From sequence record OM908436.1: a DNA stretch of 39,948 nt. One strand, written 5' to 3'. This document shows, one piece after another, positions 2,562-39,948 of the stretch. The stretch is from Escherichia phage TM1. A model generated the notes under the pieces. It searched no databases. It had not been told where the DNA came from and worked only from the letters and a program-made list of their open reading frames with translations. The first letter of the stretch is position 1, and each line of letters opens with the position of its first letter. The position numbers and the translations under genes are program-made.

Positions 2562-2584
2562 GAGTCCTATAGTGATAGTTAAGT
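2562..2584 (-). promoter_or_regulatory. Phage-RNAP promoter-like sequence immediately upstream of the RNAP gene (ACTTAACTATCACTATA/GGACTC)
   Basis: Matches the phage promoter consensus at -13 to +2; initially transcribed region deviates (GGACTC instead of GGGAGA). Confidence 0.5.
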
Positions 2585-2589
2585 CATAA

Positions 2590-2982
2590 TTACTTGCATA
2601 TCAGAGGGGTAGCGTGAAGATGACTGAAGTCACCGTGAGTCGTGTGCTTGATGGTTGACCGTTGGTCTATCGCCTTCCAGCCTGAGACCAGAAGTTTACC
2701 ATCGTCAGTGATTGGTCGTCCCCCATACGCCAGACACATCAGTTCGGACTTATGGCCCTCGGCCTGGAGTCGTGCCTGAAGTACACGGTCTCGCTCCTGC
2801 TGTTGACGCTTAGTGTGTGATGAGTGGCGGTGTACATAAGCGCTCTTTCTCCCGGTCTTCTCCCAATAGTTGCGACCACGCGAATCCTTTCCAACATACT
2901 TCCACTCTACTCCGTTCTTATCAGTGAATTTGCGAAACGCTAGGGTTGAGTCCATTGCGTGTACCAGATTTGACATATTCAT
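2590..2982 (-). CDS. Early hypothetical protein (130 aa)
   Basis: ORF directly upstream of the RNAP gene in the early region; start overlaps the stop of the upstream ORF (ATGA); no recognisable motif. Confidence 0.5.
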   Translation of the reverse strand: MNMSNLVHAMDSTLAFRKFTDKNGVEWKYVGKDSRGRNYWEKTGRKSAYVHRHSSHTKRQQQERDRVLQARLQAEGHKSELMCLAYGGRPITDDGKLLVSGWKAIDQRSTIKHTTHGDFSHLHATPLICK

Positions 2983-3179
2983 TACAGTTTGCTCCCAAGA
3001 GTTGCTATATCCCAGACGTTCGCTAAATTACGCGCGAATCGCCCGTTAGGTTGGCGTACAGTCCAGCGGCCCAGACGTGCATAGTTGAATTTATAGACTT
3101 TACGTGCCTTGTTGATGTCTCTCATCAGCATGTAGGCGATAAGTCCATAGCCTATGGCTATCAATAGTTCGATACTCAT
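2982..3179 (-). CDS. Early small hydrophobic protein (65 aa), probable single transmembrane helix
   Basis: Hydrophobic N-terminus LLIAIGYGLIAYML; coupled to the downstream ORF. Confidence 0.4.
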   Translation of the reverse strand: MSIELLIAIGYGLIAYMLMRDINKARKVYKFNYARLGRWTVRQPNGRFARNLANVWDIATLGSKL

Positions 3180-3284
3180 AGTGATTTCCGTTTAATACAA
3201 TCGTATATCCCATAACCTATCATCCAGATAACTGGCGCTAGGCATACCAAATATCCCACACTCATAGTTAACTCCTATTAATGC

Positions 3285-3340
3285 AAGTGGTAATCTTTGA
3301 GGCCACCTATCAGTCGATGACCTCTCGTTTATCACTTAGC
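3285..3340 (-). promoter_or_regulatory. Conserved early intergenic RNA hairpin element, copy D (candidate RNase III processing site)
   Basis: Shares the AGGCCACC...GATGACCT core and flanks with copy C; the stem closes with G-U pairs only in the minus-strand transcript. Confidence 0.45.
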
Positions 3341-3354
3341 TAGGCCACGCATGG

Positions 3355-3702
3355 TTACACTTCCACCGATACAGTGGTCATCTTGCTTACAGTCAGCCCA
3401 CCAGCAAGCTCAACCGCATAGCGTATCGCCTCCTCTTTGGATTTGAAGTCCTTTCCTGCAAGGTGGTAAATATCGCCTGTTATTACCTTAGAAGGCCTGC
3501 GACTCACCGCAATAGCGTTTTCCATGGCAAGCTCACCACGGCTATACTGAGTAAGCCAGCGCTTCACCGAACTCGTTCCCACCCCGAACTTTTGGGCGGT
3601 TGCAGTCACCCTATCCATAACTCCCTCAGGCAGAGAGGTGTAGTAGTTAACAACGTTGAGTTTAAATGCTACCGAGAATACATTGCGAGTTTTAGCAGTC
3701 AT
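3355..3702 (-). CDS. Early hypothetical protein (115 aa) with a possible helix-turn-helix segment
   Basis: ORF in the early region; the segment ATAQKFGVGTSSVKRWL resembles an HTH; no T7 counterpart recalled. Confidence 0.5.
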   Translation of the reverse strand: MTAKTRNVFSVAFKLNVVNYYTSLPEGVMDRVTATAQKFGVGTSSVKRWLTQYSRGELAMENAIAVSRRPSKVITGDIYHLAGKDFKSKEEAIRYAVELAGGLTVSKMTTVSVEV

Positions 3703-3725
3703 TATTCTTTCCTTCTGTAGGTGTT

Positions 3726-3776
3726 AAGTGGTAATCACTCAGGCCACCATGTAGATGACCTGTAGTTTAACACTCA
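3726..3776 (-). promoter_or_regulatory. Conserved early intergenic RNA hairpin element, copy C (candidate RNase III site)
   Basis: Transcript AGGUCAUC-loop-GGUGGCCU gives an 8-bp stem with two G-U pairs; flanked by the conserved CTGTAGTTTAACACT block. Confidence 0.45.
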
Positions 3777-4059
3777 GTATCCACCTGTCAGCGTTATGGT
3801 CAAGCTATGGTGATTAGCCACGTAGCAAGCCCCGCGCTTCATCATCTCGTAGCAACCATCGTAGAACGCCTGTTCACTGCTATAAGTTATCTGGTACATG
3901 TTTACTTGTCCTCAGCGTGTAAGCTGTCATACATGCGCTTACGACCCTCATAGACCGCTTTCAGGTGGCGCATAGCCTCATAGTGGTTTAACCGCCCGGT
4001 CTTGACCATAATCCGGGCGTTGGTGACATGGTGCTGGCAGAGACCATAAGTTACCATCA

Positions 4060-4404
4060 CTAGCAGTCCTCCTCTTCGTCTGCCTCTTCAGCCTCAAACC
4101 ATACCACATCACGGCTATTAGACACGTCGTTATAAAGTGCCTCATAGATACGAGCTTGCAGTATACGCGTCACATCCTTGGTCTCAGGCATCAGCCCAGA
4201 GTCTTCGAACTCATGGTCAATACCATCAGCAGCCATCACCGTAAAAATCTCGTGGTAATAGTGCGGTACCTGACCATCTACTACCTCATGCAGCGCATCA
4301 TGATAATCATCGCCTTCAGCTATTTCGTCGCACTGAATACGCTCATTGAACAGCTCAACGGTTGCAGCCAGCAGCTCATAGTATGCGTTAGCGTTACGTT
4401 CCAT
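4060..4404 (-). CDS. ocr: Ocr-like anti-restriction DNA-mimic protein (T7 gp0.3 homolog)
   Basis: 114 aa, acidic; [50 protein letters not shown] aligns with T7 Ocr [50 protein letters not shown]; acidic C-terminal tail. Confidence 0.88.
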
Positions 4405-4433
4405 AGTTATATCCTCTCAAAGTTAAGTATGTG

Positions 4434-4485
4434 TTAGTGACTATCATTCAGGCCGCTAGAAGCTAACGACCTGTAGTTAATCACT
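4434..4485 (-). promoter_or_regulatory. Conserved early intergenic RNA hairpin element, copy A (candidate RNase III site)
   Basis: TTAGTGACTATCATTCAGGCC...GACCTGTAGTTAATCACT, same architecture as copy B. Confidence 0.45.
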
Positions 4486-4762
4486 AGTAGGCTACATCTT
4501 TAAGTGCATTCTTAAGCATGGTCTCTATGTGTGAATCCTTCACGTTAGCCATATATCCGCCTATCACTTGCACTTCTGCATTATTGCTGGCAATTATTTC
4601 CTGCGACTTTTTATGGCCCACTCCATGATAACAATCCCACATGAAGCGCTTGAACGTTAGACCATTCTCTTTGTAGCGCTCGGCTTCTTCCGCCACTCCA
4701 CGTAATAATCTTGATTCTAACTCCTTGCGGAAGGCGTCTGCTGTAGCTTTGTTCAGTCTCAT
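4484..4762 (-). CDS. First early gene, hypothetical protein (92 aa)
   Basis: ORF with Shine-Dalgarno TAAGGA 6 nt upstream of the ATG; first ORF downstream of the sigma70-like promoter and leader; no recognisable motif. Confidence 0.5.
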   Translation of the reverse strand: MRLNKATADAFRKELESRLLRGVAEEAERYKENGLTFKRFMWDCYHGVGHKKSQEIIASNNAEVQVIGGYMANVKDSHIETMLKNALKDVAY

Positions 4763-4779: not shown

Positions 4780-4862
4780 TTAGTGACTATCAGTCAGGGC
4801 CTTCAGTCGCTCAAGTCAAGCCCGTCTCGCGGTAGACTCAAAGACCCTGTAGTTAATCACTG
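4780..4862 (-). promoter_or_regulatory. Conserved early leader RNA hairpin element, copy B (candidate RNase III site)
   Basis: Contains the TTAGTGACTATCA and CCTGTAGTTAATCACT flank blocks shared with copy A. Confidence 0.4.
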
Positions 4863-4977: not shown

Positions 4978-5007
4978 ATACTACTTTAAGTCTGTACATC
5001 TTGTCAA
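4978..5007 (-). promoter_or_regulatory. Host sigma70-type early promoter (T7 A3-like): -35 TTGACA, -10 TAGTAT
   Basis: Transcript-strand ACAAAACGCTTGACAAGATGTACAGACTTAAAGTAGTAT parallels T7 A3 ACAAAACGGTTGACAACATGAAGTAAACACGGTACGAT (from memory). Confidence 0.55.
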
Positions 5008-6278: not shown

Positions 6279-6301
6279 CTTCCCTATAGTGATAGTTAAG
6301 T
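6279..6301 (-). promoter_or_regulatory. Phage-RNAP promoter downstream of terminase (phiOR-like)
   Basis: ACTTAACTATCACTATA/GGGAAG. Confidence 0.65.
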
Positions 6302-11250: not shown

Positions 11251-11273
11251 GTTTCCTATAGTGATAGTTTAGT
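11251..11273 (-). promoter_or_regulatory. Phage-RNAP promoter upstream of the tail fiber gene (phi17-like)
   Basis: ACTAAACTATCACTATA/GGAAAC; overlaps the gp16 stop codon. Confidence 0.7.
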
Positions 11274-18964: not shown

Positions 18965-18987
18965 AGTCCCTATAGTGATAGTTAAGG
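18965..18987 (-). promoter_or_regulatory. Phage-RNAP promoter (phi13-like), lying in the loop of a 12-bp perfect inverted repeat
   Basis: CCTTAACTATCACTATA/GGGACT; flanked by AAGGGCCTATAG (18955-18966) and CTATAGGCCCTT (18993-19004). Confidence 0.7.
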
Positions 18988-23525: not shown

Positions 23526-23548
23526 TCTCCCTATAGTGATAGTTTAGT
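23526..23548 (-). promoter_or_regulatory. Phage-RNAP promoter upstream of the capsid gene (phi10-like); best consensus match
   Basis: ACTAAACTATCACTATA/GGGAGACC, about 115-nt leader to the gene 10 ATG. Confidence 0.85.
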
Positions 23549-24522: not shown

Positions 24523-24545
24523 TGTTCCTATAGTGATAGTTTAGG
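24523..24545 (-). promoter_or_regulatory. Phage-RNAP promoter (phi9-like) overlapping the portal gene stop
   Basis: CCTAAACTATCACTATA/GGAACA. Confidence 0.7.
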
Positions 24546-27342: not shown

Positions 27343-27365
27343 AGTCCCTATAGTGATAGTTTAGT
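27343..27365 (-). promoter_or_regulatory. Phage-RNAP promoter (phi6.5-like)
   Basis: ACTAAACTATCACTATA/GGGACT. Confidence 0.75.
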
Positions 27366-36088: not shown

Positions 36089-36111
36089 CTGTCCTACAGT
36101 GATAGTTTAGG
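36089..36111 (-). promoter_or_regulatory. Phage-RNAP promoter (phi2.5-like), overlapping the gene 2 stop
   Basis: CCTAAACTATCACTGTA/GGACAG. Confidence 0.6.
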
Positions 36112-37164: not shown

Positions 37165-37187
37165 TGGTCCTACAGTGATAGTTTAGT
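37165..37187 (-). promoter_or_regulatory. Phage-RNAP promoter (phi1.5/1.6-like)
   Basis: ACTAAACTATCACTGTA/GGACCA. Confidence 0.6.
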
Positions 37188-38796: not shown

Positions 38797-38837
38797 TCAT
38801 GAAGGCCACGACTTTTAGTCATGACCTTGAGTCTAAT
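38797..38837 (-). promoter_or_regulatory. Conserved RNA hairpin at +5 to +40 of the phi1.1-like transcript (candidate RNase III site, R1.1-like)
   Basis: CATGAAGGCCACG-N10-ATGACCTTGAGTCTA; 11-bp stem with two G-U pairs on the transcript strand. Confidence 0.55.
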
Positions 38838-38856
38838 CCTATAGTGATAGTTTAGA
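38834..38856 (-). promoter_or_regulatory. Phage-RNAP promoter (phi1.1-like)
   Basis: TCTAAACTATCACTATA/GGATTA; overlaps the stop of the 157-aa ORF. Confidence 0.65.
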
Positions 38857-39631: not shown

Positions 39632-39948
39632 TTAAGCGAATGCAAAGTCTGAAGACAAGATGTCTTCGATATTCAGTTTACCTTTCTTCGGAAGCTCAGG
39701 CAATTTGTCGCGCTGGCTCTCGTGGAGCTGGTATTCAAACTGCTCGTAGAAGTCAAGCAGCACATCGTTATCGCGGTAGGTCTCTACCATCGTCTCACGG
39801 ACGCCACGGAACAGATACTCAGCGTCAGCCGGGATGGTCCCGAAGCTATCGTGAATCACTGCGAATGACATCACGCCATATTTGCGGTGCGTGTGGACTA
39901 CAGTCTTGCGGAGGTGGCTACCATCTTGTGAGTGGACGAAGTTCGGGC
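39632..39948 (-). CDS. gp1: T7-type RNA polymerase, C-terminal part (stop codon 39632-39634); same gene as 1-2492
   Basis: HDSFGTIPADAEYLFRGVRETMVETY...LHESQRDKLPELPKKGKLNIEDILSSDFAFA matches the T7 RNAP C-terminus HDSFGTIPADAANLFKAVRETMVDTY...LRDILESDFAFA. Confidence 0.92.
   Translation of the reverse strand, partial: PNFVHSQDGSHLRKTVVHTHRKYGVMSFAVIHDSFGTIPADAEYLFRGVRETMVETYRDNDVLLDFYEQFEYQLHESQRDKLPELPKKGKLNIEDILSSDFAFA
39822..39948. repeat. Exact duplicate of window bases 1-127 (assembly overlap)
   Basis: See feature at 1-127. Confidence 0.8.

Follow-up and report, generated by a model that had tools for sequence, protein, structure and literature searches.

Gene content of the TM1 early region

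The early genes of Escherichia phage TM1 (OM908436.1) were analysed within the whole stretch of 39,948 nucleotides, here called the window. The replication and structural genes of TM1 are about 94-95% identical to those of known Kayfunaviruses. Its early region matches 240 related records and is 92% identical over 84% of its length to that of Citrobacter phage SH3. All early genes lie on the minus strand. The window was assembled as a circle with a 127-nt overlap, so that gene 1, encoding the T7-type RNA polymerase, is split over its two ends: the N-terminal ~830 codons are found at 1-2492 on the minus strand (tblastn with T7 gp1, 62% identity, E 0) and the remainder at 39946-39635. A gp2 homologue is encoded at 36253-36116.

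The preliminary description of this DNA had placed Ocr (gp0.3) at 4060-4404. This DNA-mimic anti-restriction protein of 114 aa is indeed encoded there on the minus strand, with a PF08684 match of 109.5 bits (E 1.3e-31; cut-off 25 bits), a match to phrog_2568 (E 7e-54), 63% identity to T7 gp0.3 and an acidic tail. Four ORFs of 92, 115, 65 and 130 aa had been listed around it, and these are present on the minus strand at 4484-4762, 3355-3702, 2982-3179 and 2590-2982, respectively. That list was incomplete, as three further genes on the same strand had been overlooked. The first (3902-4060) encodes a 52-aa homologue of T7 gp0.4 (39% identity over 41 aa, BLASTP E 4e-6), as also seen in reciprocal cross-matches between phrog_5058 and phrog_7202. 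It has the same position as T7 gene 0.4, and its start codon (GTG at 4060 or ATG at 4057) overlaps the Ocr stop codon, as in T7. It lies directly downstream of Ocr, and with it the T7 0.4 class is represented in TM1. T7 gp0.4 binds and inhibits host FtsZ. The second is a conserved 41-aa gene (3774-3899; phrog_33188) that is 83-100% identical in 18 loci. The third (3176-3265) encodes a hydrophobic, putative membrane peptide of 29 aa; its ribosome-binding site reads AGGAG, its end overlaps the start of the 65-aa gene in the sequence ATGA, and its length is conserved in ~20 loci.

The four flagged genes had been described as unrecognised. This stands in so far as no characterised homologue was found for them, but all belong to already catalogued families, with near-identical proteins in GenBank or PHROGs. 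The 92-aa protein belongs to phrog_9817 (E 5e-27), which occurs in 61 phage records, including Kayfunavirus, T3-like and Klebsiella phages, and forms only 11 clusters among 1.8 billion representatives. The 65-aa protein is K1F gp0.37 (phrog_2385, E 2.6e-30; 88% identity), present in 27 of 28 loci and in 639 phage records across Kayfunavirus and Przondovirus. The membrane peptide proposed earlier agrees with its hydrophobic N-terminus, SIELLIAIGYGLIAYMLM, by which it is predicted to be membrane-anchored. The 130-aa protein is K1F gp0.38 (phrog_7066, E 8.5e-45) and consists of the gp0.38 core (aa 44-130) and an N-terminal beta-rich extension; length variants of 86, 108 and 130 aa occur. Its start codon overlaps the gp0.37 stop codon (TAATG), and the order gp0.37-gp0.38 upstream of gene 1 is the same in 27 of 28 loci. 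All 137 gp0.38 clusters derive from contigs of ~40 kb or short fragments, and a single 39-kb record, labelled Salmonella, is the only one with a bacterial name. The 92-, 65- and 130-aa proteins gave no match in Pfam, NCBIfam, PADLOC or PDB, and no peptides from these early proteins were found in the supplements of two published accessory-gene screens.

The 29- and 65-aa proteins have no detectable homology to T7 gp0.5 and gp0.6, which fall into different PHROGs (16572 and 8393, versus 2385 for the 65-aa protein), and tblastn with T7 gp0.5 and gp0.6A gave no Kayfunavirus match. The label '0.6' in the K1F and Dev2 records denotes position only.

The 115-aa protein combines a DNA-binding fold with a conserved module

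For the 115-aa protein, 93% identical to SH3 gp4, a possible helix-turn-helix (HTH) had been suggested. We found a Brinker/transposase-type HTH at about aa 6-54 (PF09607 and relatives), which exceeds the gathering score in the profile search and has a fold of three helices. It is followed by a nearly invariant C-terminal module (aa 56-115). Its closest relatives are DNA-binding HTH domains of the Brinker, CENP-B and IS3-OrfA types, but the TM1 protein has no transposase catalytic domain. The HTH is instead joined to a module of 58 aa that is confined to early genes of Studiervirinae. This module occurs in Kayfunavirus, Foetvirus and Przondovirus, often directly upstream of a kinase gene, and three independent deletion chimeras have preserved its reading frame.

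The C-terminal module gave no match in PDB. Of an AP2- or DUF2188-like reading, only DUF2188 was seen, below threshold (E 0.06). The 115-aa sequence also matched leucine-rich-repeat proteins in PDB (E 1e-6), but we rejected these matches as an artefact in which a 16-residue motif is summed over many repeats, no single stretch being significant. Among 185,579 bacterial genomes there was one match, an uninformative 13-residue motif in a Marinifilaceae protein.

Predicted transcription signals and processing sites

A candidate host sigma-70-type early promoter (TTGACA, 18 nt, TAGTAT) was identified by consensus scan at 4978-5007 on the minus strand, upstream of the first early gene, with 10 of 12 consensus positions matching. 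Four hairpins of RNase III type are predicted on the same strand: hairpin A upstream of the 92-aa gene (4782-4861; -32.4 kcal/mol, z -4.1), hairpin B between the 92-aa gene and Ocr (4435-4486; -25.4 kcal/mol, z -5.4), hairpin C upstream of the 115-aa gene (3725-3776; -22.2 kcal/mol, z -3.6) and hairpin D downstream of it (3283-3340; -22.4 kcal/mol, z -3.5). Hairpin A has a lower stem, an internal loop and an upper stem, and none of 200 shuffled sequences folded as well; it shares with hairpin B the arms GTGATTAACTACAGG...CCTGA.TGATAGTCAC. No Rfam family covers the four hairpins. All four are intergenic and have the internal loop of a T7-type RNase III site, which suggests that they would be cleaved. 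Directly upstream of gene 1, at 2565-2582 (minus strand), we found a match to the phage RNA polymerase promoter consensus TTAACTATCACTATAGGA, of which the minus strand carries 10 copies compared to 0.01 expected by chance. It lies 82 nt upstream of gene 1 and is conserved across Kayfunavirus loci.

TM1 lacks a gp0.7 kinase, as do most of its relatives

The preliminary description had noted that a gp0.7 kinase is missing, and this holds for the whole window. Searches with T7 gp0.7 and the Kayfunavirus-type kinase Dev2 gp0.5 (tblastn) reached best E values of 1.1-2.9, and no kinase remnants were detected in the window. The early ORFs did not match the kinase PHROGs 2828, 15752 and 18305, whereas control proteins did. 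T7 gp0.7 itself had no match in the Pfam copy used, which lacks the gp0.7 family PF27024. The kinases T7 gp0.7 (T7K), JSS1_004 and Dev2 gp0.5 are encoded in the same early region of related phages, adjoining the 115-aa gene in GW1 and SFPH2, whereas the TM1 window contains nothing homologous to these kinases or to the shut-off domain. Thus neither an overlooked kinase nor characterised homologues of the T7 0.4-0.6 class for all four flagged proteins came to light.

The lack of a kinase had been taken, by implication, as an oddity of this phage, but it is the common state in Kayfunavirus. K1F, the type species, has no kinase in its gene content as annotated in GenBank and RefSeq, and the gene is absent from 20 of the 28 early regions compared. 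In the map of these loci, 15 have Ocr without kinase, seven a kinase without Ocr, five neither and one both. Dev2-type kinases at a minimum of 80% identity occur in ~47 phage records and gp0.37 at a minimum of 60% in ~214; both figures contain duplicates between GenBank and RefSeq and are uncorrected for phylogeny. The Kayfunavirus kinases are 244 aa long and end before the shut-off domain. The kinase is therefore a variable cassette in Kayfunavirus that TM1, like K1F and most relatives, does not have. The term may overstate how frequently it is exchanged, because the phages with a kinase seem to fall into one or two clades. For the same reason we do not claim as a finding the apparent mutual exclusion of Ocr and kinase, although none of the 15 Ocr-type loci of the Kayfunavirus core set carries a kinase. 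Kinase-bearing phages are reported to deplete Ser/Thr/Tyr residues (PMC13645617). In agreement with this report, the early proteins of TM1 are not depleted, with a Ser/Thr/Tyr content of 16.9% compared to 12.1% in those of T7.

We also considered whether the kinase was lost recently by deletion in the TM1 lineage, for instance during propagation or assembly, so that its absence would be accidental and not typical of the genus. The early region often gives rise to deletion chimeras (Dev2 gp0.2, the IMEP24 Ocr fusion and P0029), and in SFPH2 and GW1 the kinase gene sits exactly between the 115-aa and 29-aa genes. However, the kinase-less junction of 115-aa gene, hairpin D and 29-aa gene is common to TM1, SH3, ASO2B and L016, and K1F shares the kinase-less architecture seen in 20 of the 28 loci. 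Moreover, with a single exception the loci that have a kinase encode a SAM lyase in place of Ocr, pointing to another lineage with its own set of cassettes. Together with the missing remnants, this makes a recent loss improbable.

The flagged genes are unlikely substitutes for the kinase

It is likewise improbable that any of the four flagged genes takes over the function of gp0.7 without being homologous to it, for instance gp0.38 as a stand-alone DNA-binding shut-off domain or the 115-aa HTH protein in a nucleic-acid targeting role. The slot of gp0.38 just upstream of gene 1 is that of T7 gene 0.7, gp0.38 has a basic helix (aa 55-75), and its profile aligned weakly to residues 262-315 of T7 gp0.7. 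In addition, the T7 shut-off domain, before which the 244-aa Kayfunavirus kinases stop short, binds DNA (PMC13645617). The profile match to T7 gp0.7 reached only 2.1 bits, however, and profile-profile comparison of gp0.38 with the shut-off domain (hhalign, based on a shallow domain alignment of nine close sequences) gave a probability of 0.2% and an E value of 0.29. A search of the viral structure library BFVD with the AlphaFold2 model of gp0.38, itself of low confidence (pLDDT 60), returned orthologues only, including one named Gp0.38. Given these two comparisons, we reject the reading of gp0.38 as a detached gp0.7 shut-off domain. The genes gp0.37 and gp0.38 coexist with a kinase in Dev2, GW1, SFPH2 and others, and the kinase gene lies directly downstream of the 115-aa gene in GW1, SFPH2 and SRT7. 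Since relatives carry the 65-, 130- and 115-aa genes together with kinases, and T3-like genomes contain the 92-aa gene too, we conclude that none of the four replaces the kinase.

The early ORFs are under purifying selection

When pooled against homologous loci, every early gene showed a pN/pS of 0.15-0.33: 0.15 for the 115-aa gene, 0.16 for the 92-aa gene, 0.17 for the 41-aa gene, 0.30 for both the gp0.4 homologue and the 29-aa gene, and 0.33 for both gp0.37 and gp0.38. For comparison, the values were 0.16 for Ocr and 0.09 for the N-terminus of the RNA polymerase. The GTG-initiated ORF of 47 aa (3335-3192) that overlaps the 29-aa gene reached 0.80, and its catalogued family, phrog_36394, is probably spurious. 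Purifying selection acts on the 92-, 115-, 65- and 130-aa ORFs, which are genuine genes. It is extremely improbable that some or all of these ORFs stand open by chance in a leader that codes for nothing: they are short, only the HTH gives a domain match and phrog_36394 shows that spurious families do seem to arise here, but selection on all four is comparable to that on Ocr, their length and synteny are kept across dozens of genomes, the C-terminal module of the 115-aa protein has a dN/dS of 0.05-0.14 at a pS of up to 0.48, and neither neutral substitution patterns nor frequent frameshifts were seen.

Discussion

The region at 2590-4762 is very probably the early (class I) region of a phage of the K1F type, genus Kayfunavirus, subfamily Studiervirinae, and ordinary for that genus. 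K1F and SH3 have the same order as TM1, namely Ocr, a gp0.4-like gene, small genes, gp0.37, gp0.38, phage promoter and gene 1, and likewise no kinase. In SH3, the 115-aa gene is present as well, and gp0.38 likewise has the form of 130 aa (95% identity). The 92-aa first gene is present in TM1, Peacock and Vec13 but not in K1F and SH3, and Ocr has the short form of 114 aa in TM1 compared to 169 aa in K1F and SH3. As in T7, the early transcript would be driven by a host promoter, Ocr is followed by an overlapping gp0.4 homologue, small hydrophobic peptides are encoded, RNase III-type hairpins are predicted between cassettes, and gene 1 comes last. In contrast to T7, TM1 has no gp0.7 kinase or shut-off gene and no detectable gp0.5 or gp0.6 homologues, while it carries the additional 92-, 41- and 115-aa genes and gp0.38. 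A phage promoter precedes gene 1 in TM1, where T7 has the RNase III site R1.

By analogy with T7, host RNA polymerase would start at the sigma-70 promoter near 5007-4978 and read leftward, and the four hairpins would allow RNase III to cut the early transcript into four cassettes. The first would hold the 92-aa gene, the second Ocr, the gp0.4 homologue and the 41-aa gene, and the third the 115-aa HTH gene. The fourth would comprise the 29-aa peptide, gp0.37 and gp0.38, predicted from their overlaps to be translationally coupled, followed by the phage promoter and gene 1. Anti-restriction would be provided by Ocr, and shut-off of host transcription could rest on the retained gp2 homologue.

As judged from sequence, the 92-aa protein is most likely a small cytoplasmic binder that acts early in host takeover or counter-defence. 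The 115-aa protein most likely binds DNA sequence-specifically, its constrained C-terminal module having an effector or oligomerisation function. Both genes are likely sporadic, exchangeable accessory cassettes. The genes gp0.37 and gp0.38 likely form a conserved genus-level early module, probably anchored at the inner membrane via gp0.37 and the 29-aa peptide. A weaker idea is that these three proteins constitute a genus-specific membrane-anchored host-takeover module without T7 counterpart. We think it unlikely, though worth stating, that the 115-aa gene represents a new class of mobile early-region effector in which a DNA-targeting HTH is joined to a host-takeover or counter-defence module. 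In that case the activity would reside in the nearly invariant 58-aa module, which is restricted to T7-like phages and moves between Kayfunavirus, Foetvirus and Przondovirus.

A 2026 study (PMC13645617) showed that many bacterial defences are disarmed by the T7 kinase, which raises the fair question of how the numerous related phages without a kinase manage. The TM1 early region reveals no new mechanism. Its local annotation is corrected by the gp0.4 homologue, the real 29-aa gene and the probably spurious 47-aa ORF family, and it provides an annotated list of candidates, consisting of the 92-aa, 41-aa and 115-aa HTH genes and the 29-aa/gp0.37/gp0.38 operon. TM1 represents the usual solution of a kinase-less Kayfunavirus, which combines Ocr with small uncharacterised early genes.

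Genome layout and absence of the kinase

The window begins with 127 nt that are repeated at 39821-39948. This repeat is the assembler overlap of a circularised contig with a genome of ~39.8 kb, and the RNA polymerase gene is therefore split across the window ends. All genes are carried by the minus strand, where a sequence search found the T7-type RNA polymerase gene (gene 1) starting at 2492 and continuing across the ends. Citrobacter phage SH3 aligns to 84% of the early region at 92% identity, and 240 phage records, mostly Kayfunavirus, match this region; the replication and structural genes share 94-95% identity with known Kayfunavirus. Based on these identities the phage is K1F-like, within the Studiervirinae.

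As claimed in the preliminary description, Ocr is present and a gp0.7 kinase is not. Ocr (4404-4060, minus strand) is unambiguous (PF08684, E 1.3e-31; 63% identity to T7 gp0.3). The whole window was searched in six frames with T7 gp0.7 and with Dev2 gp0.5, a kinase of the Kayfunavirus type; no kinase was found (best E about 1-3), and none of the early ORFs matched the kinase PHROGs, to which control kinases matched strongly. Because a homologue of the host RNA polymerase inhibitor gp2 is retained (36253-36116, minus strand; 45% identity to T7 gp2, E 1.5e-9), host shut-off is probably independent of gp0.7 here. Homologues of gp1.2, DNA ligase, gp1.6 and gp1.7 are also found in the window. Ser, Thr and Tyr make up 16.9% of the early proteins, compared to 12.1% in T7 early proteins and 15.3% in the window's long ORFs, so these residues are not depleted. 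This fits the depletion reported for early proteins of phages with a promiscuous kinase (PMC13645617).

The absent kinase had been implied to be odd. The observation was correct, but the unusual status was not borne out. According to its annotation, the type species K1F harbours Ocr, a gp0.4-like gene, small genes and gene 1, and no kinase. When the early regions of 27 related loci and the window were mapped (28 in total), 15 had Ocr and no kinase, seven a 244-aa kinase and no Ocr, five neither and one both. The Ocr slot of the seven kinase-bearing loci (L005, L017, L020, L021, L023, L024 and L025) is occupied by a 150-aa SAM lyase; in this sample every kinase is paired with the SAM lyase and none with Ocr, the divergent locus L029 being the sole exception. 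The kinase-bearing loci seem to fall into one or two clades, and the separation of kinase and Ocr may reflect shared ancestry, not functional exclusion. In the five loci with neither gene, the Ocr slot encodes a 174-aa protein of phrog_11084 (L012:1138-1662, L013:1310-1834, L014:1134-1658, L015:2848-3372 and L019:85-513). By eye, its stretches GKGAFTKCY, ISPRNV and LVDCF resemble the glycine loop and the catalytic/DFG region of kinases; no match to this protein was found in Pfam. The Dev2-type kinase (at least 80% identity) occurs in about 47 phage records and the genus-wide 65-aa gene (at least 60% identity) in about 214, which puts the kinase in roughly one fifth of the genus, by raw record counts that include duplicates and shared phylogeny.

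Coding content of the early region

The four flagged ORFs of 92 aa (4762-4484), 115 aa (3702-3355), 65 aa (3179-2982) and 130 aa (2982-2590), all on the minus strand, were found where they had been placed. Judged by codon-level constraint they are real genes, with pooled pN/pS against homologous loci of 0.16, 0.15, 0.33 and 0.33, respectively (Ocr, 0.16; polymerase N-terminus, 0.09). Three small minus-strand genes were missing from the earlier list. The 52-aa ORF (4060-3902) is a gp0.4 homologue (39% identity to T7 gp0.4, E 4e-6); each protein matches the other's PHROG, and its start and the Ocr stop codon overlap, in exactly the arrangement of T7 gene 0.4. The 41-aa gene (3899-3774) shows 83-100% identity across 18 loci (pN/pS 0.17). 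The third gene (3265-3176) encodes a 29-aa hydrophobic peptide. Its ribosome-binding site is AGGAG, it overlaps the 65-aa gene at ATGA, and its length is the same in about 20 loci. A 47-aa GTG ORF (3192-3335, minus strand; phrog_36394, E 2e-34) overlaps both this frame and the RNase III-type hairpin downstream of the 115-aa gene. Its pN/pS is nearly neutral (0.80), whereas the 29-aa frame has 0.30. The 47-aa ORF was probably annotated in error, with phrog_36394 gathering mis-called ORFs and the 29-aa frame being the real gene. The slot of the 29-aa peptide is filled in some relatives by unrelated hydrophobic peptides (45-55 aa), each predicted to span the membrane twice (L014:2006-2173, L017:3736-3897, L027:2296-2463 and L028:4164-4301). 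The slot therefore seems to be kept for small membrane peptides, and can be likened to T7 gene 0.5.

The 92-aa gene (phrog_9817), the first on the early transcript, is present in only three of the 28 mapped loci and in 61 phage records, including Kayfunavirus, T3-like and Klebsiella phages. Its family comprises only 11 clusters among 1.8 billion representatives, and no relative was found in Pfam or PDB. T3-like phages carry the gp0.7 kinase, and the 92-aa gene is therefore not a kinase substitute. Its product is most likely, at low confidence, an early-acting protein-binding accessory factor.

By sequence, the 65-aa and 130-aa genes correspond to K1F gp0.37 and gp0.38. In agreement with the membrane peptide proposed before, gp0.37 has an N-terminal membrane helix; it occurs in 639 phage records of Kayfunavirus and Przondovirus. 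The forms of gp0.38 have 86, 108 or 130 aa, and in the 130-aa form of the window a beta-rich segment is inserted at about aa 15-44. Its AlphaFold2 model was poor (pLDDT 60), and sequence and structure searches returned only orthologues. All matches were on genome-length contigs of ~40 kb or short fragments, and no bacterial homologue was found in protein clusters or in the viral structure library, where only gp0.38 orthologues matched. Given its slot upstream of gene 1 and the lack of the gp0.7 shut-off domain in Kayfunavirus kinases, gp0.38 was considered as a detached form of that domain, but this was rejected at a profile-profile probability of 0.2%. Both gp0.37 and gp0.38 accompany the kinase in Dev2, GW1, SFPH2 and others, and are therefore not kinase substitutes.

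Candidate promoters and processing sites

A candidate sigma-70-type promoter lies at 5007-4978 (minus strand). Four predicted intergenic hairpins with an internal loop (z -3.5 to -5.4 against shuffled controls), similar to the RNase III processing sites of the T7 early transcript, split the early region into four cassettes: the 92-aa gene; Ocr, the gp0.4 homologue and the 41-aa gene; the 115-aa gene; and the 29-aa, 65-aa and 130-aa genes, which are joined by stop/start codon overlaps. The motif GTGATTAACTACAGG...CCTGA.TGATAGTCAC is common to the hairpins upstream of the 92-aa gene and before Ocr, with diverged forms in the two hairpins flanking the 115-aa gene; Rfam holds no family for the four.

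At 2565-2582 (minus strand) the phage promoter consensus TTAACTATCACTATAGGA is matched perfectly. This copy lies in the gap that separates the 130-aa gene from gene 1, 82 nt upstream of the latter, a place taken by RNase III site R1 in T7. The minus strand carries 10 copies compared to 0.01 expected by chance, the other nine being at 6282-6299, 11254-11271, 18968-18985, 23529-23546, 24526-24543, 27346-27363, 36092-36109, 37168-37185 and 38837-38854. The promoter before gene 1 is conserved also in K1F and in some 25 related loci, with a sequence that changes with the lineage of the polymerase (CCCTCACTATAGG, CACTAAAGG), suggesting that the RNA polymerase gene boosts its own transcription.

The 115-aa HTH protein

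The possible HTH of the 115-aa protein was supported by a match of its N-terminal half to the Pfam Brinker DNA-binding domain (24.9 bits, threshold 23.4) and by a confident model of this half as three helices (pLDDT 80-90). The C-terminal 58 residues show almost no variation across the family. Their dN/dS is 0.05-0.14 at a synonymous divergence of up to 0.48, which indicates constraint at the protein level and not recent DNA identity. Three in-frame deletion chimeras retain only these 58 residues: Dev2 gp0.2 (L005:759-1076), the IMEP24 'Ocr' (L006:1117-1677) and P0029. Their N-termini differ, each coming from one early gene (SAM lyase, Ocr or gp0.4-like). The family (29 clusters among 5.8 billion proteins; 25 phage records) occurs only in early regions of Kayfunavirus, Foetvirus (SRT7) and Przondovirus (VLCpiA3d), with and without the kinase, and lies directly upstream of it in GW1, SFPH2 and SRT7. 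The protein is best read as a sequence-specific DNA-binding early protein, with the C-terminal module as an effector or oligomerisation part.

Overall, this is an ordinary kinase-less Kayfunavirus early region made of already catalogued gene families, with nothing pointing to a new kind of system. The flagged genes are reasonable candidates for host-takeover or anti-defence functions, and the 115-aa HTH cassette is the most interesting lead among them.
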